DNA from: Escherichia coli | Lineage (GTDB): Bacteria > Pseudomonadota > Gammaproteobacteria > Enterobacterales > Enterobacteriaceae | DNA length: 64,000 nt | Assembly (NCBI RefSeq): GCF_003019035.1 | Contig: NZ_CP027447.1 | Strand: one strand, 5' to 3' | Shown: positions 27,054-63,048 of the stretch, one piece after another | Position numbering within the stretch: position 1 is the first letter of the stretch | How the letters are laid out: the number at the start of each line of letters is the position of its first letter | Notes under the pieces: generated by a model | What the model saw: the letters and a program-made list of their open reading frames with translations, nothing else | The model's database searches: none | Told to the model about the DNA's origin: nothing | Position numbers and translations under genes: made by a program

Positions 27054-28310
27054 TTATTTACTCATAGTATTGATATTGAAGACCTGTTCCAGCATGGGAT
27101 TGAACACAAAGCCTTTCACCTCTTTGTTCATCGCCAGTTGATAGTTTTTCTGGAACAGGTACACATAAGCAGCGTCATCAATGACGATTTTCTGTGCCTG
27201 CTGGTAGTCCCGGGTACGCTGCGTCTGGTCGGTGGTCGCTAGCGCATTGCGCAGTAACTTATCGACCTCACTGTTTTCATAGAACGAGCGGTTACCCGGC
27301 AGACCTTTTTTGTCGGACTCAAACCAGTAATTCATAAACATATACGGGTCGGCAAAATCCGGACTCCAGTTGCCAATCGCGATGTCGTAATCACCTTTAC
27401 CCACTCTGTCGCGCATGGTGGCGTTCGCCAGCTTTTCCAGCTTCACATTGATGCCCAGCTTGTTGAGACTGGATTGTGTCGCCAGAGCAATAGGCTCCCA
27501 GTTCGGATCATTATCAGAATAGAGAAACGTCAGGCTGGTGGGTTTGCTCGTCACTTTATCCCATTCGGCTTTGGCTTTCGTTTCGTCATGGTTGTATTGC
27601 ATTGCCGTCGCATCGTATCCCCACATGCCTTCCGGAATCGGGCCGCGCATCTGTTTTCCGTTACCACTCAGAATGCCGTTAACCATTCCCTGATAATCGG
27701 TAGACCAGGAAATGGCCCGACGCAGATCCGCCTGATTAAGTGGCGCTTTGCTGTTATTCAGATACAGATAGGTGACGCGCAGTGACGGATACTCTGCCAC
27801 ATTGACTTTGTTTTCCTGCTTCAGTGCGTTGAGTTGATCCACCGGCAGCGCATCGGCAATGTCAATGTCGCCACGGGAGAGCTGCAGGCGACGGGAAGCA
27901 CTTTCACCGATAATTTTTACCGATACCCGTTTGAAATTCGGTTTATTGCCGGGGTAATGCGGATTTGGCACCAGAACTAATTGCTGACCTTTTTGCCAGC
28001 TTTTCAGCATAAACGGTCCGGAGCCAGCGGTATTTTGCGCGAGGAAACCACGGGCATCATCCGCCGCATGCTCCTTTAAGACCGCCGGATTGATAATGGA
28101 TGCACCGTCATTCGCCAGCGTGTAGAGGAACGGTGCGAATGGCTGGCTAAGGGTAAACCTCACTATATGTTCGTCGGGAGCATCAATCTTTAAATCTTTG
28201 GGAAATGCTTCTGCTGGCCCCTGGCCGATTTTTAGTAACCGCTCAAAAGAGAGTTTTACTGCTTCGGCAGTGACAGGTGTGCCATCGGCAAATTTAGCAT
28301 TGTCCTTCAG
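27054..28310 (-). pseudogene. ddpA: ddpA periplasmic dipeptide-binding protein, 5'-truncated by prophage insertion
   Basis: Reading frame runs without stop from 27054 up to the prophage junction at 28310 (ORF track shows only 27054..28163 from an internal GTG); about 418 C-terminal residues remain, signal peptide and first ~98 codons absent. Confidence 0.85.
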
Positions 28311-28490
28311 TGTATTGATTCACTTGAAGTACGAAAAAAAACCGGGAGGACATTGGATTATTCGGGATCTGATGGGATTAGATTTGGTGGGGCTTGCAAG
28401 CCTGTAGCGCAAATTTTAGTCGTTAATCAATGAAACGCGAAAGATAGTAAAAAATTGCTTTTGTTTCATTGAAAATACGAAAAACAAAAA
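28311..28490 (+). repeat. Prophage left end (attL) with transposase-binding sites L1-L3
   Basis: Terminal TG; end-binding repeats TGATTCACTTGAAGTACGAAAA (28317-28338), TGAAACGCGAAAGATAG (28431-28447), TTGTTTCATTGAAAATACGAAAAAC (28461-28485). Confidence 0.75.
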
Positions 28491-28649
28491 CACTGCAAAT
28501 CATTTCAATAACAGCTTCAAAAAACGTTCAAAACCGATAACAACCAGGCTGTAACCAAATGACTCATATCACAAATCAGCTCATGCCGTTTAGGTATGTT
28601 ACATGTGTGATTATGTGAGGTGAAGTATGTTTTAGCTGGTTCATGGTTG

Positions 28650-29168
28650 TTATACGGCTTTTTTTACATCTTGTGGTTCTTGCGAAGGAGCTACAAGACC
28701 TTCCTGTTCATGAATACCATGCTCTGACAAAATCTCTTTGCGCTCTTCTGCTGGTAAAGTTTCTAGCATTTGGGCGAGTTGTATGCACTCACGCGATACG
28801 CCGTGCAGAGATTGGATTTGAGTCTGATCAAAGATACTTGGCATTAGTGCACTAAGTCCACCTTTACTAAGTAGCTTTAATGCCCTCTGGATTTCCTCTG
28901 GTTCTAACTCTGCAACCAAAGCCATTAACACAGAAGCTAACTTATAAGCTGACTTATCGTTATCTAATAACTGCGCCCCTCCTAATTCTGCCTGAGTGGC
29001 ATCAGGTAATGAGCTGATATGGTATTCATAAGCAACACCCTTTACTCCTTTGATCTGTCTCTTTTTCCATCCCTCATTAGTTGCTTTGCGGCTAATACTA
29101 CTTGCTGAAGACGGAAGACCAGCAACCCCTTGTAGCTCTTTAGCTGAAAACCATTCTTGTGTCATCAC
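28650..29168 (-). CDS. c: Prophage repressor c (D108-type N-terminal DNA-binding domain, Mu-like C-terminal domain)
   Basis: 172-aa ORF facing the left end; C-terminal ...[13 protein letters not shown]...[15 protein letters not shown]...[12 protein letters not shown] matches the Mu repressor family; N-terminal domain is homologous to the transposase N-terminus in this window. Confidence 0.8.
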
Positions 29169-29356
29169 AAACCTCGCTTTAAATACACGATGTATTCAAA
29201 GAAATGAAAAATATATTCACTTTAAAATCATCGAGATAGATGAATTTCAAACAAAACATTTGAATACACTATTGCATTGACAATGTATTCACACTAGCAT
29301 TACTGCATACCTTATCAGCTACCTTGCGGCGTAGCTGATGGCGTAGCTTGTGAGGA
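29169..29356. promoter_or_regulatory. Operator / early promoter / enhancer region between c and ner
   Basis: At least four copies of TGTATTCA(C) or its complement at 29191, 29212, 29261, 29284; divergent c and ner starts flank it. Confidence 0.6.
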
Positions 29357-29365
29357 TTGCATTTT

Positions 29366-29584
29366 ATGGCGATAAAGAAAAGTAAATGTGAAGACAAAAG
29401 TAGATACGACATTGTTGCTGATCTGCGCAAAAGAGGAAAAAGCCTAGCAGCTCTTGGTCGTGAGAACGGTCTCTCTATCTCTACGGTAAAAAATGCCTTG
29501 GATAAACCTTACCCTCGGGGGGAAAGAATCATTGCCGATGCATTGGGAGTTGAGCCACGAGACATCTGGCCTTCGAGGTATTGA
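29366..29584 (+). CDS. ner: Ner-family DNA-binding early regulator
   Basis: ORF 29357..29584; likely ATG 29366 with GAGGA RBS; [72 protein letters not shown] (Ner/Nlp family). Confidence 0.8.
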
Positions 29585-29586
29585 AA

Positions 29587-31587
29587 ATGCAACCACAATG
29601 TAATGATTGGTTTTCTGCAAAGAAATTAGAAGGGCTGATAGGTCTTCCAAAATCCTCTAGCGCGATCTCTCGTAAAGCAAGGTTAGAACAGTGGGTGTTT
29701 CGACAGATACACGGGGTAAGAGGAGTAGCCTATGAGTTTCATATCTCATCTTTACCAAAGGAAACGCAAGCTGCGTTGTTGCTTAGACAAGGAGAGATCG
29801 AAACAAGCCAGGGCCGTTTTGAAATCGCCCGCCCCACGCTGGAAGCCCATGATTATGATCGTGAGGCACTGTGGAGCAAATGGGATAACGCCAGCGATTC
29901 CCAGCGCAGACTTGCTGAAAAATGGTTGCCTGCGGTTCAGGCCGCAGACGAAATGCTGAACCAGGGGATTTCAACAAAAACGGCTTTTGCGACCGTTGCA
30001 GGGCATTACCAGGTCAGCGCATCCACTTTGCGGGACAAGTATTACCAGGTACAGAAGTTTGCGAAGCCTGACTGGGCGGCTGCGCTTGTTGATGGACGTG
30101 GTGCATCCCGTCGCAACGTTCACAAAAGTGAATTTGACGAGGATGCCTGGCAGTTTCTGATTGCAGATTATCTGCGACCGGAAAAGCCCGCCTTCCGCAA
30201 ATGTTATGAGCGTCTGGAACTGGCAGCCCGCGAGCATGGCTGGAGTATTCCCTCCCGTGCCACGGCCTTTCGCCGGATTCAGCAACTGGACGAGGCAATG
30301 GTTGTTGCCTGTCGTGAAGGTGAACATGCACTGATGCATCTGATACCGGCACAGCAGCGAACTGTGGAACACCTGGACGCCATGCAGTGGATCAACGGCG
30401 ACGGTTATCTGCATAACGTCTTTGTACGCTGGTTTAACGGTGATGTGATCCGCCCGAAAACATGGTTCTGGCAGGATGTGAAAACCCGAAAAATTCTGGG
30501 CTGGCGCTGCGATGTGAGCGAGAACATTGATTCAATTCGCCTCTCGTTCATGGATGTTGTGACTCGCTACGGTATCCCGGAGGATTTTCACATCACCATT
30601 GATAACACCCGTGGTGCTGCGAATAAATGGCTGACGGGAGGCGCGCCCAATCGCTACCGCTTTAAGGTAAAAGAGGACGATCCAAAAGGACTGTTTTTAC
30701 TGATGGGGGCGAAAATGCACTGGACAAGCGTTGTTGCCGGTAAAGGCTGGGGCCAGGCAAAACCTGTTGAACGTGCTTTCGGTGTTGGTGGGCTTGAGGA
30801 ATACGTTGATAAGCATCCGGCACTGGCTGGCGCATATACGGGGCCTAATCCGCAGGCAAAACCTGATAACTATGGCGACCGCGCTGTTGATGCAGAGCTG
30901 TTTCTGAAAACCCTTGCCGAAGGTGTGGCGATGTTCAATGCCAGAACAGGCCGTGAAACAGAAATGTGCGGAGGCAAACTTTCGTTTGATGACGTTTTTG
31001 AGCGTGAATACGCCAGAACGATTGTGCGTAAGCCTACCGAAGAGCAAAAACGGATGCTGTTACTGCCTGCCGAGGCGGTGAACGTTTCACGTAAAGGCGA
31101 GTTCGCGCTTAAAGTTGGCGGCTCCCTTAAAGGTGTGAAAAACGTTTATTACAACATGGCGTTAATGAATGCCGGAGTGAAAAAAGTTGTGGTCAGATTT
31201 GATCCACAGCAGTTACACAGCACGGTTTATTGCTACACCCTGGACGGTCGGTTTATCTGTGAAGCGGAATGTCTGGCACCTGTTGCGTTTAATGATGCTG
31301 CGGCAGGCCGTGAATATCGCCGCCGCCAGAAACAACTGAAATCTGCGACGAAAGCAGCAATTAAGGCACAGAAACAAATGGATGCACTGGAAGTGGCAGA
31401 GCTGCTGCCGCAGATAGCCGAACCTGAAGCACCAGAATCACGAATTGTCGGCATTTTCCGGCCTTCCGGTAATACGGAACGGGTGAAGAATCAGGAGCGT
31501 GATGATGAATACGAAACTGAGCGTGATGAATATCTGAATCATTCGCTGGATATTCTGGAACAGAACAGACGTAAAAAAGCCATTTAA
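29587..31587 (+). CDS. A: Transposase A (DDE transposase/integrase of Mu family)
   Basis: ORF 29581..31587; likely ATG 29587; from about residue 60 onward matches Mu A as I recall it ([10 protein letters not shown]...[28 protein letters not shown]...), N-terminal ~55 aa differ. Confidence 0.9.
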
Positions 31588-31625: not shown

Positions 31626-32564
31626 ATGAATATTTCCGATATTCGCGCAGGACTGCGCACGCTTGTAGAAAATGAAGAAACCACCTTTAAACAAATTGCT
31701 CTTGAGAGCGGACTTTCTACCGGAACTATCAGTAGTTTTATCAATGATAAGTACAACGGGGATAACGAGCGTGTTTCACAAATTCTGCAACGCTGGCTGG
31801 AAAAATATCATGCAGTTGCAGAACTACCTGAACCGCCCCGCTTTGTGGAAACGCAGACGGTAAAACAAATCTGGACAAGTATGCGTTTTGCCAGCCTGAC
31901 TGAAAGTATTGCTGTTGTGTGTGGCAATCCTGGTGTGGGCAAAACCGAAGCGGCCCGTGAATATCGCCGCACCAATAACAATGTCTGGATGATCACCATT
32001 ACGCCATCCTGTGCCAGCGTTCTTGAATGTCTTACTGAACTGGCGTTTGAGCTGGGAATGAATGACGCACCACGCCGTAAAGGGCCGCTCTCCCGCGCCC
32101 TGCGACGTCGCCTTGAAGGTACACAGGGGCTGGTTATCATCGACGAAGCTGATCATCTTGGTGCCGAAGTTCTGGAAGAACTCCGCCTGTTACAGGAATC
32201 AACCCGTATTGGCCTTGTGCTGATGGGAAATCACCGGGTTTATTCAAATATGACGGGGGGTAACAGAACGGTTGAATTTGCCCGTCTGTTTTCCCGTATT
32301 GCAAAGCGCACTGCAATTAATAAAACCAAAAAAGCCGATGTAAAAGCTATTGCGGATGCCTGGCAGATTAACGGCGAAAAAGAACTGGAGTTATTACAGC
32401 AGATTGCGCAGAAACCAGGTGCGCTTCGCATTCTGAATCATTCACTTCGCCTTGCCGCCATGACGGCTCACGGTAAAGGTGAGCGTGTTAACGCAGATTA
32501 TCTGCGTCAGGCTTTCCGTGAATTAGACCTGGACGTTGATATTTCAACGCTGCTGCGTAATTAA
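31626..32564 (+). CDS. B: Transposition target-DNA activator B (AAA+ ATPase)
   Basis: 312-aa ORF with Walker A GNPGVGKTEA and Walker B VIIDEADHL; immediately after A. Confidence 0.9.
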   Translation: MNISDIRAGLRTLVENEETTFKQIALESGLSTGTISSFINDKYNGDNERVSQILQRWLEKYHAVAELPEPPRFVETQTVKQIWTSMRFASLTESIAVVCGNPGVGKTEAAREYRRTNNNVWMITITPSCASVLECLTELAFELGMNDAPRRKGPLSRALRRRLEGTQGLVIIDEADHLGAEVLEELRLLQESTRIGLVLMGNHRVYSNMTGGNRTVEFARLFSRIAKRTAINKTKKADVKAIADAWQINGEKELELLQQIAQKPGALRILNHSLRLAAMTAHGKGERVNADYLRQAFRELDLDVDISTLLRN

Positions 32565-33051: not shown

Positions 33052-33321
33052 ATGGCAAAGGTTATCTTTGAGTTTACATGGCTGGAAAGTAGTGACGGTT
33101 GCAATGGGCGCAGAGAAGTTCTGGATGCAAAAGCATGTCTTGCAGATATCTCGCCAACGGAAAATACCGGGCCTCATGATTTACTGGCAAATATCGTCCT
33201 GACTATGGCTCCTGAAATTATTAAAAAGGCCAAAGATGAGATGCTGACCACTATGAAGAAAGTGGGTATGGAGGCTGAATGTGATTTAGTACCACATCCG
33301 GTGAATGCGGTTAAACATTAA
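33052..33321 (+). CDS. Early-region hypothetical protein
   Basis: 89-aa ORF with RBS-like AGGAGA upstream; same strand as early operon. Confidence 0.5.
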   Translation: MAKVIFEFTWLESSDGCNGRREVLDAKACLADISPTENTGPHDLLANIVLTMAPEIIKKAKDEMLTTMKKVGMEAECDLVPHPVNAVKH

Positions 33322-33341
33322 TTCGCAAAGGAGCGCTGACA

Positions 33342-35234: not shown

Positions 35235-35758
35235 TGTTTTTTAAAACGTCAAATCCCGCAGCACTGCTGGCGTGGGACCAGTTTATGGCGGACTGTCTGA
35301 AACTACGCGAAGAAGCCCGCCATCTTGATAAGGTTCTGGGTTGTGGTTGCCGGTCAGTATTCAGCACAGGTATTGGTGGGCGTTATTTTCATGGTGTGAA
35401 CTTTCCGGGGAATGAGCGCCCTTTCTCGCGGGAGCTGTGGACCGTACAACGGCCCGCATCAGGTAACAGTTGCAGGCCTAGAACTTCGCGGATACCTGTT
35501 CATCTCAGGGAGCAGGCAAAAGAGCTGGCGAAAATATGGCAGGAGAATATTCCGGTCACTTATGCCCGCACAGATGCTCTTTTACCCGCACTGGGACTGG
35601 ATTTCAGCGCAACAATATTCGGGCCGCTCCGGTGGTTCCGTGTTGGTGATGTGATTTACGTCATGACGGGGATGACACCCGCACAGGGCTGCATGACGGA
35701 AATCCTGTCCGATGAATTCATGAAGGCAAAGATTGCGTTAAAGGGGGCCGCTAAATGA
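35234..35758 (+). CDS. Early-region hypothetical protein
   Basis: ORF 35195..35758; likely ATG 35234 (MFFKTSNPAALLAWDQF) with AGGAGG RBS at 35221, overlapping upstream stop. Confidence 0.5.
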   Translation: MFFKTSNPAALLAWDQFMADCLKLREEARHLDKVLGCGCRSVFSTGIGGRYFHGVNFPGNERPFSRELWTVQRPASGNSCRPRTSRIPVHLREQAKELAKIWQENIPVTYARTDALLPALGLDFSATIFGPLRWFRVGDVIYVMTGMTPAQGCMTEILSDEFMKAKIALKGAAK

Positions 35759-36423
35759 AAGAACGTGGCGTTGCTTTTAATGACGATATGGTCAGGGCAA
35801 TTCTCGAAGGAAGAAAGACGCAAACACGCCGCCCGGTAAAAAATGTCGGACACGATAACTGTCTGGTTATCCATCGTAACGGTGTTTATACCCACGTTAT
35901 GGATGCACCTGAGCATGGTTTATGCCCGTTCGGTAACGTTGGTGATCGCATCTGGGTCCGTGAAGCGTGGGCAATATTAGGCAATGAGGATGGTTGCAGT
36001 GTGGACTGGAACGGCAACCTTTGTCATGGCGATGAGAAGAAGGCAGCAAGGATTTATCGGGCAAGTTGTGAACAAAAGCCTGGTGATTACGGTCTGTGGT
36101 CAATACCTGATGATGCTGACTGGAAACCTCGCACTGTGAATGAAAAGTTTGATGGCAGGTGGTGCCCATCTATCCACATGCCGCGCTGGGCGTCGCGCAT
36201 TCTGTTGGGAATAACCGACGTGCGTGTGGAACGGCTGCATGATATTAGCGAGGCAGATGCGAAAGCGGAAGGCGCATTTCCGGCGACGTACAAAATTACG
36301 CCACCGGAAGCTGTTTATCGCGTTGGTTTTGGTGATATCTGGCGCGGTATTTATGGGCAAGATAACTGGCTGTCTAATCCGTGGGTATGGGTAATTGAGT
36401 TTAAGCGTATTCAGGAAGCATAA
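35755..36423 (+). CDS. Conserved prophage protein (ASCH/PUA-like N-terminal motif suspected)
   Basis: 222-aa ORF with N-terminal MVRAILEGRKTQTRRP and GDRIWVREAW motifs, recurrent in prophage proteins. Confidence 0.5.
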   Translation: MKERGVAFNDDMVRAILEGRKTQTRRPVKNVGHDNCLVIHRNGVYTHVMDAPEHGLCPFGNVGDRIWVREAWAILGNEDGCSVDWNGNLCHGDEKKAARIYRASCEQKPGDYGLWSIPDDADWKPRTVNEKFDGRWCPSIHMPRWASRILLGITDVRVERLHDISEADAKAEGAFPATYKITPPEAVYRVGFGDIWRGIYGQDNWLSNPWVWVIEFKRIQEA

Positions 36424-36425
36424 CT

Positions 36426-36767
36426 ATGAGCAAATCACTTAATGCACGTTGTATTCGCCGTTGGGAAGTCAGATTTAAGCCTGTTTGTGATTCAAAAGTT
36501 AGCCCTCACATGCGTAAAAGCTTTTTGCGTGGGGTGCGTGAATTAGGGCTTATTACGGCTGAAAACATGGTTGAAAGCATGGCTGAGAAAAACGCCAGGT
36601 TTGATTACGACGGCAAGGACACAGGCTGGTCACCGGAGTTTTCTAACTGGTATGCAACATGCCGAGAAAAGTATTGTAAAGAGGCCCGCGACTATCTGGA
36701 TGAAGAAGTCACAAACGATGAGATCGATGAAGAAATCAGAACTGAGCTAGAGTATTGGAATGACTAA
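36426..36767 (+). CDS. Early-region hypothetical protein with acidic C-terminal tail
   Basis: 113-aa ORF ending DYLDEEVTNDEIDEEIRTELEYWND. Confidence 0.45.
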   Translation: MSKSLNARCIRRWEVRFKPVCDSKVSPHMRKSFLRGVRELGLITAENMVESMAEKNARFDYDGKDTGWSPEFSNWYATCREKYCKEARDYLDEEVTNDEIDEEIRTELEYWND

Positions 36768-36837
36768 TCTGGCCGATATGACCGGAAAGTGTTTCAGCGA
36801 TACAAGCGGTGTGGTAGCACCGCTTTTTAAAGGTATG

Positions 36838-59693: not shown

Positions 59694-61048
59694 TGTTTTA
59701 TATTGATAACGACAGCGGCGTAACCGTCATGCCGCCCGTATCCGCCCAGCGTAGTGCTATCGTTCGCTGGTTTTCAGAAGGTGACGGGAATAATGTTATC
59801 ACATGGCCCGGCATGGACTGGTTTAATATTGTTCAGGCGGAGTTATTAAACACGCTGGAAGAAGCTGGTATTCAACCGGATAAAACAAAATTAAACCAGC
59901 TTGCACTGTCCATTAAAGCCATTATGAGCAATAACGCGCTGCTGATAAAAAATAACCTCAGCGAAATTAAAACTGCCGGGGCATCAGCACAGCGTACAGC
60001 ACGTGAAAATCTGGATATCTATGATGCCAGCCTGAACAAAAAAGGACTCGTTCAGCTAACCAGTGCCACTGACAGCCCCAGTGAAACGCTGGCAGCCACC
60101 GCAAAAGCGGTGAAAATTGCGATGGATAATGCCAATGCCCGTCTGGCAAAAGACCGGAACGGAGCAGATATTCCCAATAAGCCGCTGTTTATCCAAAACC
60201 TCGGTTTACAGGAAACGGTAAACAAGGCTGGTAACGCTGTTCAGCGTTCTGGCGATACAATGACCGGAAAACTGAATCTACCACAGACATCTGCATTCGG
60301 CGTTAATACCGATAATGCACTGGGTGGTAATTCCATTACTCTCGGAGATAACGACACCGGTATTAAACAGGGCGGCGATGGTGTCCTTTTATTCTATTTA
60401 AATGGACAACTGATATTTGGGCTTCAACCCACATCCGCTGATTTTTATAAGCGAGTTGCCTACATTCATCAGGGAGTAGCTCCAGATGGGAGTGGCGCAT
60501 TTGCAGACCAGTTAAATAATGCCACCGCGCCTTTTGTTCAGACGCAGTTTGCCTGGAATCCCACTCCTGGCGGTCATTACGTACCGATAGCTAAGGGCTT
60601 GTCCATTCGCAATGGACAGGGGTATCCAGGTGCGGTCAGCTTTGGTTATTTACTAACTGAACAAATGGGATTTCCCATACCATGCATTCATATGCGTGGA
60701 GATTACGGAGCTGATGCTTTGTGGCAGTTTAACCCGAACGATAAATCTTTTATTTCACCGGGGGCTCTTGTTGCGGGTGGCATCCGTTATAACACCGATG
60801 GAAATATATTTGGCGGGTGTTGGGGTTCAAATTTAGCTGATTATCTCAATAGCACATATGTAAGAGACATTCGACTTGGTAGCGCAGAATCAATATCAGC
60901 ATGGCGAGGCCCTGGTTACTGGGATACTTCTGGATATGTTCTGACCGCAGCCGGAAACAGCAACACCGATGAATTTATTGATACATTAACCAGAAGGCCT
61001 ATTCAGAAGTTGATTGGTGGGACATATTATAACGTTGTGAGTATTTGA
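59693..61048 (+). CDS. S: Tail fibre protein S (constant part 59693-60188 fused to the variable part currently in expressed orientation)
   Basis: 451-aa ORF crossing the left inverted repeat at 60189; C-terminus ...[10 protein letters not shown]. Confidence 0.8.
60189..60227. repeat. Left inverted repeat of G segment (contains gix recombination site)
   Basis: TTATCCAAAACCTCGGTTTACAGGAAACGGTAAACAAGG; reverse complement of 63010-63048 with 2 mismatches. Confidence 0.85.
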
Positions 61049-61049
61049 C

Positions 61050-61577
61050 ATGATGCATTTAAAAAACATTAAAGCAGGGAACCCAAAAACACCTGAACAA
61101 TACCAGTTAACCAAAAAAGCTGGAGTGGTCTGGCTTTATACTGAAGATGGTAAAAACTGGTACGAAGAACAAAAAAACTTTCAACCAGATACTATAAAAA
61201 TTGCATACGATAAAAATAATGTGATTGTTACCGTAAGCAAAGATGTTTCAACGATTAACCCGGAAGGTTTAAGTGTTGTTGAAGTATCCGATATTACGGC
61301 AAATCGTCGCGCAGACAATAACGGAAACTGGATGTTTCTGGATGGTAAAGTAGTAAAGCGGGAATATACAAAACAGGAGCTGCAACAGCAGGCAGAGTTA
61401 CAAAAATCCGCTTTGCTTTCCGAAGCGGAGTCTGTGATTCAACCGCTGGAACGTGCTGTCAGGCTGAATATGGCAACTAATGAGGAACGCGCACGACTGG
61501 AGTCATGGGAACGCTACAGTGTTCTGGTCAGCCGTGTGGATACGGCAAATCCTGAATGGCCACAAAAGCCTGAATAA
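61050..61577 (+). CDS. U: Tail fibre assembly protein U (expressed orientation)
   Basis: 175-aa ORF; paralogue of minus-strand 61606..62139 ORF (both begin [11 protein letters not shown]). Confidence 0.8.
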
Positions 61578-61583
61578 AAATTA

Positions 61584-61604
61584 AGGCCCGATAGCGGGCC
61601 TTGT
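61584..61604. terminator. Bidirectional hairpin between convergent U and U'
   Basis: AGGCCCG-ATA-GCGGGCCT. Confidence 0.5.
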
Positions 61605-61605
61605 C

Positions 61606-62139
61606 TCATTCTGGTTGTTCCGGGAATGTTACAGGAAGAACAGAGGTATCTGTGGCATCAACCTGCTGCATGTATAACATCCAGTTAATGAGTCTTTGCC
61701 TGTCTGAATCGCTGATAATTCCCAGCGCAAGCTGTGTTTGCCAGCACTGCGTTTCCTCTCTGGCCTGTCGCAGCAAAATCTGTTTCTGAATTTCAGCCAG
61801 TTGACGTAGTTCTTCATCAGTCCGGGGGCGTTTCATGACCTTGCCATCCTGAAACACCCAGTCACCGAGAATATCGGCCCGGCGATTCGCTGTCGTGTCG
61901 GGTAATTCGACAACGCTCATTCCTTCCGGGTTAATAGACGACACATCTTTTTCAATATAGCGAATGATACCTCTGTCATCGTAAGCGATTTTTAGTGTGT
62001 CTGCCTGAAAGGCTTTTTGTGCCTCATACCAGTTCTGACCATCTTCAGCGTAAAGCCAGATAACACCATGTCTCTTTGTTAACTCATACTGTTCCAGTGT
62101 TTTAGCATTACCCGCTTTTATGTTCTTTAAGTGCATCAT
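61606..62139 (-). CDS. Alternative tail fibre assembly protein U' (silent orientation)
   Basis: 177-aa ORF, N-terminus near-identical to U. Confidence 0.75.
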   Translation of the reverse strand: MMHLKNIKAGNAKTLEQYELTKRHGVIWLYAEDGQNWYEAQKAFQADTLKIAYDDRGIIRYIEKDVSSINPEGMSVVELPDTTANRRADILGDWVFQDGKVMKRPRTDEELRQLAEIQKQILLRQAREETQCWQTQLALGIISDSDRQRLINWMLYMQQVDATDTSVLPVTFPEQPE

Positions 62140-62140
62140 A

Positions 62141-63009
62141 TTAAACGCTCGCTACATTATACCAGGTGCCATTTATATACTTTTGAACGGGTCTGTAATA
62201 AACGCCCGCTATATTATCGGCAGAGTTGGACCCTGTATCCTGAACATTAATACCAGACAATACATGACCTGACGGGCACTTGAAATTCCATGTTTGCCAG
62301 TTGTTCACACCATGATATTGCTGTGAACCAAGACGAACATCTTTTACGTATCGGGAATCAAAGTTACTCCAGTTACTTGGTTGTATGTGACCGTTTACAG
62401 CAAATATCACCGAATTATCTGTATTTCGCTGACTATAGAAATGCCAGCCTGAATCATCACCAAGCTCTGCAACAGTTGGTCTTGATGAAGTGCCCCATAA
62501 ATTAAAACCTACGTTTTTCGTGGAGTTGTTGGAGCTGGATAGCGTGAATTTTTTACCATCCCCGGCCTGAACGTTTTTAAAAGCAATAGCAACTCCATTC
62601 TGAAAGCGGAATACTCGCTGACTATTAGCGTAAACATCCAGAATACCGTCTCCATTCTGTTTAAATCCGGTATCATTATCACCAAGAACAATAGAGCTAC
62701 CACCTAACGCATTCGTCGTACCAACTCCAAGGCTGCCATTAATGACGGCATTAACAAGAATATTTAGTGCATCCCATTTCAGCGTCATCAGGTCTTTTGT
62801 TGTGGTGCTTTGTTTGCTTCTCCATTTGAAATATTCATTGCCGTTGTCGCCTGTTTCAAACCACATGTATGAATCAGTGTCACCATCGGCATCATTTTTA
62901 AATCCAATCTTCGCCCAGTCAGTATTTCGAATCCAGGCAAGGATTGAGTCATTTTCAAAAGTAAGCCCACCGGACAAAGTATCGCCATTTTTTTGCACGG
63001 CATTACCAG
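62141..63009 (-). CDS. Alternative tail-fibre variable region S' (no own start; in frame with S constant part after G inversion)
   Basis: Open minus-strand frame from the right inverted repeat to 62141; hand translation from the repeat gives ETVNRAGNAVQKNGDTLSGG... in the same phase as S; C-terminus ...NGTWYNVASV similar to S. Confidence 0.75.
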
Positions 63010-63048
63010 CCCTGTTTACCGTTTCCTGTAAACCGAGGTTTTAGATAA
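63010..63048. repeat. Right inverted repeat of G segment (contains gix site)
   Basis: CCCTGTTTACCGTTTCCTGTAAACCGAGGTTTTAGATAA. Confidence 0.85.

Follow-up and report, generated by a model that had tools for sequence, protein, structure and literature searches.

The locus described here is the control region, with repressor, operators and transposase, of a Mu-family (Muvirus) prophage transposed into the ddpA gene of E. coli, and it raises the question of which immunity and enhancer specificity such a region encodes. The initial annotation had described it as D108-type, implying D108-like rather than Mu operator and enhancer specificity. We examined the region within a window of 64 kb (the whole stretch of DNA that was analysed). 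Host ddpA homology ends at 28310-28313 and the gene is interrupted at 28310/28311, where the left end of the prophage begins; the right end lies outside the 64 kb window. None of the complete E. coli genomes searched carries this insertion in ddpA.

Gene layout and mosaic boundaries

The main features of the locus are as follows.

28311-28483, + strand: prophage left end (attL), with 95-100% nucleotide identity to the Mu left end, compared to 78-95% for D108
28650-29165, - strand: c repressor, 171 aa (PF02316, phrog_7148 and ORF)
28980-29165, - strand: N-terminal winged-HTH DNA-binding domain of c, residues 1 to ~62, part of c
28729-29756, no strand: exchanged immunity cassette of ~1 kb, seen as a drop in sliding identity to Mu and D108
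29366-29584, + strand: ner, Cro-like early repressor, 72 aa (phrog_769 at E 1.4e-29)
29587-31587, + strand: transposase A, 666 aa (phrog_310 transposase at E 1e-196)
29587-29826, + strand: A domain I-alpha (enhancer-binding winged HTH), residues ~1-80, by its match to 1tns
31626-32564, + strand: B, transposition ATPase, given for context and outside the cassette

The ORF map follows the standard Mu order, with the c repressor pointing leftwards, an operator/enhancer region of about 200 bp, and ner-A-B running rightwards, the divergent genes being located roughly 1 kb from the left end. The attL carries three MuA (transposase) end-binding sites (28321-28337, 28427-28443 and 28467-28483), with 0-1 mismatch to the consensus YMYNWRAARYRCGAAAR. 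The c, ner, A and B ORFs are all intact. The likely start of c is the ATG at 29165 (171 aa), rather than the GTG at 29168, and that of A the ATG at 29587 (666 aa), rather than the TTG at 29581; ner likely starts at the ATG at 29366 (72 aa). These start codons lie 7-10 nt downstream of a GAGG and match both the RefSeq annotation and that of Escherichia phage PhiR68_1, to which we return below.

Inside the cassette, sliding identity was 33-65% to Mu, compared to 83% in the block just before it (28669-28728), and 27-70% to D108; outside the cassette, identity to the Mu backbone was 95-100%, with sharp boundaries. The cassette contains c residues 1 to ~130, the operators, ner and A residues 1 to ~57, the latter being the only allele-specific part of A. 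The BLASTN alignment to D108 was interrupted between 28671 and 29786. That to Mu had no match across 28770-29748, with nucleotide homology returning at 29749, and the control region is accordingly not identical to that of canonical Mu. The N-terminus of A had been thought to differ from Mu A and the rest of the transposase, from about residue 60, to be Mu-like, along with B, mor and gin. This was indeed the case: A is only 48% identical to Mu A over residues 1-75 and 99.5% identical from residue 76 to the end, B is 99.4% identical to Mu B, and nucleotide identity to Mu is 95.3% in the gemA-mor region and 97.3% in the gin region.

A segment of about 1 kb has been swapped as one unit within a Mu backbone. 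The heteroimmune style of organization recognized earlier, in which the control region is swapped and the repressor and transposase N-terminus change together as in D108, is therefore borne out. D108 is the classical example of heteroimmune control-region replacement in the account quoted in PMC3820752 (Mizuuchi, Weisberg & Mizuuchi 1986 NAR 14:3813).

The winged-helix domain common to c and A

The initial annotation also held that the N-termini of c and A are homologous to each other. Both peptides are present in the sequence, and BLASTP aligned c residues 3-62 with A residues 7-66 (numbering of the listed ORFs) with 39/60 identities (65%), 47/60 positives and no gaps (E 3e-23), confirming the relationship. 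Pfam PF02316 (HTH_Tnp_Mu_1) matched c (E 1e-22), as did the phrog_7148 transcriptional repressor family (E 1.6e-48). The PHROG cross-hits were reciprocal, the c N-terminus matching transposase phrog_310 and the A N-terminus matching repressor phrog_7148. The A N-terminus matched PDB 1tns (MuA I-alpha, E 3e-15) and also 1g4d (Mu repressor DNA-binding domain), and the structure predicted by AlphaFold for c residues 1-65 (pLDDT 84) came nearest to 1tns (TM 0.80, rmsd 1.8 A) and 1qpm. No NCBIfam model matched c or A. The common domain is the winged helix-turn-helix of the Mu repressor and of MuA domain I-alpha.

The c and A domains of this phage are 67% identical, above every cross-type value (25-59%). 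The predicted recognition helix (residues 21-31) holds type-specific residues: S22, S/A23 and S25 here, compared to T, N and T in D108 and A, G and H/I in Mu.

Candidate operators and the relation to D108 and Mu

The sites proposed between and around the divergent gene starts are listed below.

29166-29365, no strand: c-ner intergenic control region with putative operators and transposition enhancer (clustered repeats, collinear with D108)
29180-29187, + strand: candidate half-site TGAATACA/TGTATTCA, 1 mismatch
29191-29198, - strand: candidate half-site TGAATACA/TGTATTCA, repeat
29212-29219, - strand: candidate half-site TGAATACA/TGTATTCA, 1 mismatch
29261-29268, + strand: candidate half-site TGAATACA/TGTATTCA, repeat
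29277-29282, strand not given: -35 TTGACA of a candidate early promoter, relaxed consensus match only
29284-29291, - strand: candidate half-site TGAATACA/TGTATTCA, repeat
29314-29339, no strand: putative Ner operator, the perfect inverted repeat ATCAGCTAC-N8-GTAGCTGAT, from a repeat search

The exact TGAATACA occurs three times in the 64 kb window, each time inside the 100 bp between 29191 and 29291, and 3 of the 16 prophage copies of the 7-mer GTATTCA fall in the operator region (P about 1e-4). The corresponding half-site 7-mers are GATTTCA in D108 and CTTTTCA in Mu, and each is exclusive to the operator region of its own type: GATTTCA has no copy in the control region studied here, GTATTCA is likewise absent from the D108 operator region, and CTTTTCA was not found in the operator region of the window. 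As a control of the procedure, the same 7-mer analysis picked up CTTTTCA, the motif already known from Mu. The operator region can be aligned collinearly with those of D108 and SfMu, the half-sites occupying equivalent positions but differing in sequence from theirs. Among eight prophages of this type, 6/40 positions were variable in the half-sites (15%) vs. 33/139 elsewhere (24%), a trend in the expected direction that was not significant (p = 0.17); we therefore call the half-sites as candidates from repeat structure and positional homology only. A strict sigma-70 scan of 28300-29700 yielded no promoter and a relaxed scan only weak candidates, so that promoter assignments are tentative. No site with one mismatch or fewer to the IHF consensus WATCAANNNNTTR was found.

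The arms of the putative Ner repeat vary at 1 of 18 positions among the eight prophages, and a third copy of GTAGCT is found at 29343-29348. The D108 Ner repeat, CCGTGAGCTAC-N8-GTAGCTCACGG, has the same position and 8-nt spacer with different flanks, and the two sites have an AGCTAC core in common. The Ner protein itself scored 79 bits against the NCBIfam SfsB/Ner model, under its cutoff of 150.

D108 is the nearest relative of this allele for the DNA-binding domains (48-59% identity vs. 28-43% for Mu) and for Ner (64% vs. 46%). The c domain is 38% identical to its Mu counterpart; for A, identity is 51% to D108 over residues 1-75 and 43% to Mu over I-alpha. The resemblance to D108 also extends to the joint replacement of c, operators, ner and the A N-terminus, to the N-terminal domain common to c and A, and to the collinear geometry of the operators and Ner site. 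Over its full length, however, c shows 40% identity with D108 c and 46-50% with Mu c; for its C-terminal part the values are 32% and 56%, respectively, the last ~40 residues being of Mu type. The left end is 62-95% identical to that of D108, with 42% over the 3′ end of c, and the BLASTN match to D108 is confined to 360 nt at the start of the left end, with 80% identity, there being none across the control region. What this prophage has in common with Mu is the module layout, the backbone, the attL sites and the winged-HTH fold (1tns, 1qpm).

The allele is distinct from both. The label D108-type thus stands as a description of the pattern, the domains, layout and Ner being nearer to D108 than to Mu, but fails as the name of an allele. 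The D108 operator and enhancer specificity proposed with it is disfavoured by the divergence of c and Ner, by a half-site and Ner repeat of its own, by the lack of a BLASTN match in the control region, and by a left end and C-terminal c portion that resemble Mu rather than D108.

A PhiR68_1-type allele in E. coli

The same cassette is found in Escherichia phage PhiR68_1 (PV340575.1), which is 97.7% identical at the nucleotide level over 28311-29798 (100% of the query; PV340575.1 positions 8-1493). Its c is 95-96% and its Ner 98.6% identical to those of the window, and A residues 1-75 are 100% identical. The genome, deposited as complete, is collinear with the prophage at 98.2% over 32 kb, with a different G-segment and tail-fibre region (about 70%). 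PhiR68_1, whose host field reads E. coli C, is the sole phage record carrying the cassette, and its GenBank record gives the genes no description beyond repressor, Ner and transposition protein. In the literature library that was searched, no paper dealt with PhiR68_1 immunity or with a third Mu-family immunity type. Among 5426 complete E. coli genomes, the PhiR68_1 type occurs in 14, the D108 type in 45 and the Mu type in 27; of the Mu-family prophages in complete E. coli genomes, about 15% (15 of ~101 places) carry the PhiR68_1-type cassette. A fourth type, with a repressor domain of the Cro/CI type, was also seen among Mu-family prophages.

The Mu repressor reads the same operator/enhancer sites as the transposase. 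The Mu operator sequence bound by the transposase is the transposition enhancer (Mizuuchi & Mizuuchi 1989, as cited in PMC5961161), and the same article assigns an enhancer role to MuA domain I-alpha (PMC5961161). The winged helix-turn-helix domains of the repressor and of transposase I-alpha are paralogous. In the scheme we propose, because both proteins would act at the same operator sites, the repressor would both shut off the early promoter and compete with the transposase for the enhancer. Both domains and the DNA sites would need to match one another, so that immunity would change only if all three were replaced together. The cassette at 28729-29756, with its own recognition-helix residues and its own putative operator and Ner sites, is such a joint replacement. 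Here, c and A are predicted to bind the GTATTCA sites, which, by homology of the domains, may act as an enhancer bound by A, with the repressor competing.

We consider it quite probable that the cassette is a third, uncharacterised allele of the Mu-family control module (the PhiR68_1 type), swapped as a unit. In all likelihood it determines a third type of immunity and of enhancer specificity. It is also likely, at slightly lower confidence, that the repressor, the enhancer-binding domain of A and the GTATTCA sites have co-diverged to form a third natural orthogonal class, which would be heteroimmune to both Mu and D108.

An unlikely alternative is that the repressor and transposase recognise the D108 operators and enhancer, making the prophage homoimmune with D108. 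The proximity of the DNA-binding domains to D108, the collinear operator region, the identity between the Ner proteins and the core and spacer common to their sites would all fit this reading, as would the I-x-RKA motif (I-[ST]-R-K-A) that D108 also has in its recognition helix. Partial cross-recognition of D108 sites may occur, given this common motif and the 5/8 bases common to the exact 8-mer half-sites. However, the 8-mers differ at 3/8 positions, the 7-mers are mutually absent, and recognition-helix positions 22, 23 and 25 differ from D108 in both c and A. The 40% overall identity of c and the missing BLASTN match across the control region also speak against D108 immunity, genuine D108-type phages (SfMu and Mu_3F6) being 90-99% identical to D108 in c and 98-100% in Ner. 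Furthermore, one natural strain, 22KM0354, harbours both a D108-type and a window-type prophage, each of full length.

It is very improbable that the control region is a decaying remnant, drifting without function from Mu or D108. The right end of the prophage is outside the window and this allele is less frequent than the other two, which would fit a remnant, but none of the four genes (c, ner, A and B) is disrupted, the prophage aligns collinearly with a phage deposited as complete, and divergence is not evenly spread but limited to a cassette with sharp borders. The exact repressor protein is also present on 844 contigs, and in each of six further prophages of this type (6 of the 14 genomes) a different host gene, usually truncated, adjoins the prophage. 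The idea that the c/A likeness stems from recent gene conversion or duplication of the opposed gene starts, and not from selection on specificity, deserves hardly any credence. It would accommodate a c/A domain identity of 38/56 in this prophage, higher than the 31/56 of D108 and the 25/56 of Mu, and the c and A segments do form an inverted pair flanking the operators. Nevertheless, their nucleotide identity (56-59%) equals that in Mu and D108, a repeat search found no long inverted repeat linking the two gene starts, and the codon is the same for only 14 of the 39 identical residues, a comparison that led us to reject recent conversion between the 5′ ends of the two genes. Together, these three observations point to an old paralogy held by selection at the protein level.

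A domain common to repressor and transposase is textbook Mu biology, and in this respect the locus brings no conceptual change. The picture of Mu vs. D108 is incomplete for E. coli, however, given a third cassette plus a fourth type. Annotation pipelines name these genes only "DNA-binding protein", so that the immunity type cannot be read from the annotation. Taken together, the three related cassettes provide a natural series, in which few changes in the recognition helix and wing accompany 2-3 base changes in the half-site, and which lends itself to the dissection of specificity and to the construction of orthogonal mini-Mu systems. If our reading is correct, the three winged-helix/operator sets would allow a recognition code to be read from few residue and base changes, and the third class could supply orthogonal tools for Mu transposition and repression.

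Left end and early genes of the prophage

A Mu-family prophage begins with its left end at position 28311. Host ddpA/ddpB homology ends at 28310-28313, and from 28311 onward identity to the left end of Mu is 95-100%. The early genes are in the standard Mu order (c, intergenic region, ner, A, B), with ATG starts that are preceded by GAGG motifs and are the same as in PhiR68_1 and six RefSeq E. coli genome annotations. The prophage extends past the window end, and of its two ends the left one alone falls within the window.

Features of the left end and early genes
28321-28337, transposase end-site consensus match 1
28427-28443, transposase end-site consensus match 2
28467-28483, transposase end-site consensus match 3
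28650-29165, minus strand, c repressor ORF
between c and ner, intergenic region of 200 bp
29314-29339, putative Ner site, perfect inverted repeat ATCAGCTAC-N8-GTAGCTGAT
29366-29584, ner ORF
29587-31587, transposase A ORF
31626-32564, transposition ATPase B ORF

The prophage disrupts ddpA (27054-28310), the substrate-binding protein gene of a D-Ala-D-Ala dipeptide ABC transporter; no insertion at this ddpA site was found among 5426 complete E. coli genomes. Six other prophages examined, with the same type of control region, are bounded by different host genes (including torS and genes for an S49 peptidase, a Fic protein and a DUF5682 protein), consistent with active random transposition. A terminator-like hairpin within the 3′ end of c (28669-28698, plus strand) is probably not meaningful, since the one hairpin observed in the region, vs. 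a mean of 0.9 in shuffles, is about the chance level.

A DNA-binding domain common to repressor and transposase

The initial annotation held that the c and A N-termini are homologous. Indeed, both peptides are present and align with 39/60 identities and zero gaps (E 3e-23). The c protein matches Pfam PF02316 (E 1e-22). PDB hits for the A N-terminus include 1tns, MuA domain I-alpha (E 3e-15), as well as 1g4d, the Mu repressor DNA-binding domain. When c residues 1-65 were modelled with AlphaFold (pLDDT 84), the nearest structure was 1tns (TM 0.80, rmsd 1.8 A), followed by 1qpm, and PHROG cross-hits between c and A are reciprocal. The common domain is thus a Mu-type winged helix-turn-helix; such sharing is textbook knowledge (Harshey et al. 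1985 and Mizuuchi et al. 1986, as cited in PMC3820752). Recent copying between the two N-termini is ruled out by the codons (only 14 of the 39 identical residues share one) and by a nucleotide identity of 56-59%, a level also seen in Mu and D108; the two domains are old paralogues kept alike at the protein level.

The c and A domains are 67% identical within this type, vs. 25-59% for either against the domains of other types. Residues of the predicted recognition helix (c residues 21-31) are common to c and A within one type and differ among types: position 22 is S here, T in D108/SfMu and A in Mu; position 23 is S or A, N, and G, respectively; position 25 is S, T, and H or I, respectively. 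Wing-region positions 38, 41 and 46 show a similar pattern.

An immunity allele distinct from those of Mu and D108

As first described, the A N-terminus is unlike that of Mu and neighboring genes are Mu-like: A residues 1-75 share 48% identity with Mu (51% with D108), vs. 99.5% for the rest of A, 99.4% for B, and 95% and 97% nucleotide identity for the gemA-mor and gin regions, respectively. The proposed D108-type immunity stood only in part. The operator, ner and DNA-binding-domain portions are closer to D108 (Ner 64% vs. 46% identity to D108 and Mu, respectively), but the region does not share the D108 allele. Its repressor is 40% identical to that of D108 (46-50% to Mu), whereas SfMu and Mu_3F6, with true D108 immunity, are 90-99% (c) and 98-100% (Ner) identical to D108; the values published for SfMu are 89% and 98% (PMC4406740). 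BLASTN matched D108 only over the leftmost 360 nt of the prophage (80%), with no match over the control region.

Nor did the predicted D108-like operator hold up. An unsupervised k-mer count on the c-ner region of each phage recovered CTTTTCA three times in Mu; this matches the published Mu repressor consensus and provides a positive control. The count recovered GATTTCA in D108 and GTATTCA/TGAATACA in the window and PhiR68_1, and the c-ner region of each type (Mu, D108, window type) lacked the others' motifs. All three exact copies of TGAATACA in the 64 kb window fall inside 29191-29291, with two one-mismatch copies at 29180 and 29212. In an alignment, the c-ner region is collinear with its counterparts in D108 and SfMu, column for column, the half-sites being swapped in place, and D108 has CCGTGAGCTAC-N8-GTAGCTCACGG at the position of the putative Ner repeat. 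Across eight prophages, a conservation footprint of the candidate half-sites did not reach significance (p = 0.17).

Judged by its sequence, the region is a third immunity allele, already sequenced but uncharacterised. PhiR68_1 (Escherichia phage, PV340575.1) is the sole phage record with this control region (97.7% across the whole query) and is collinear with the prophage (98.2% over 32 kb). Heteroimmunity of the allele to both Mu and D108 is likely: exact 8-mer half-sites differ from D108 at 3/8 bases, the recognition helices of c and A both carry residues different from those of D108, identity is low overall, and strain 22KM0354 carries full-length prophages of the D108 and window types in different genes. 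Against this, the I-x-RKA motif is common to D108 and the half-sites agree at 5/8 bases. Strain 22KM0354 (E. coli, dog blood isolate, NZ_CP151071.1, prophage loci L018 and L019), a natural double lysogen, also has a third A/B match.

Among the 5426 genomes, the conserved A/B core occurs in 88 (101 places), and the Mu-, D108- and window-type control blocks in 27 (32 places), 45 (45 places) and 14 (15 places), respectively. The exact repressor belongs to a cluster named merely "DNA-binding protein", on 844 contigs and also recorded in Salmonella.

A fourth control-region type was seen in other E. coli Mu-family prophages (loci L009/L010/L011, e.g. L011:2613-5609; protein P0016). The repressor of this type (202 aa; a cluster of 342 members) combines an N-terminal Cro/CI-type HTH_3 (PF01381) with a Mu-type C-terminal part, 55% identical to the window c with the same 19-residue tail; the transposase next to it retains a PF02316 I-alpha domain whose sequence, MLTHWVTAQECVGMS..., is different again. 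This type breaks the Mu/D108 rule, its repressor and transposase having no common DNA-binding domain.

Mosaic structure and proposed mechanism

Three further segments depart from Mu. An early (semi-essential) block at 35722-36799, non-Mu and non-D108 but present in PhiR68_1, encodes two uncharacterised proteins, one of 222 aa (phrog_874) and one of 113 aa (phrog_6675), neither matching any PADLOC defence model. A short replacement surrounds gene 7 (33072-33326). The invertible G-segment tail-fibre region (60268-63010) shares only ~70% identity with Mu, D108 and PhiR68_1, suggesting a different host-range cassette.

The transpositional enhancer of Mu, a sequence at the operator, is the binding site of domain I-alpha, as recounted in PMC5961161 with reference to Mizuuchi & Mizuuchi 1989. 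By homology, c would bind the GTATTCA sites, overlapping a weak candidate early promoter (-35 TTGACA at 29277), and A would bind the same sites as enhancer; c would thereby prevent early transcription as well as transpososome assembly. For Ner, the predicted target is the inverted repeat directly downstream.

Sliding comparison with Mu and D108 resolved three zones: 28311-28668 is Mu-like (95-100%, vs. 62-95% for D108), 28729-29756 is divergent from both, and from ~29817 onward differences from either phage are few or absent; across 28669-28728, identity drops to 83% (Mu) and 42% (D108). Within the divergent block, the middle and C-terminal parts of c are closer to Mu (56% vs. 32% for D108). 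The boundaries fall within c near residue 130 and within A near residue 57, the end of domain I-alpha. The swapped unit therefore comprises the c DNA-binding domain, the operators, ner and A domain I-alpha, the parts that need to match one another.
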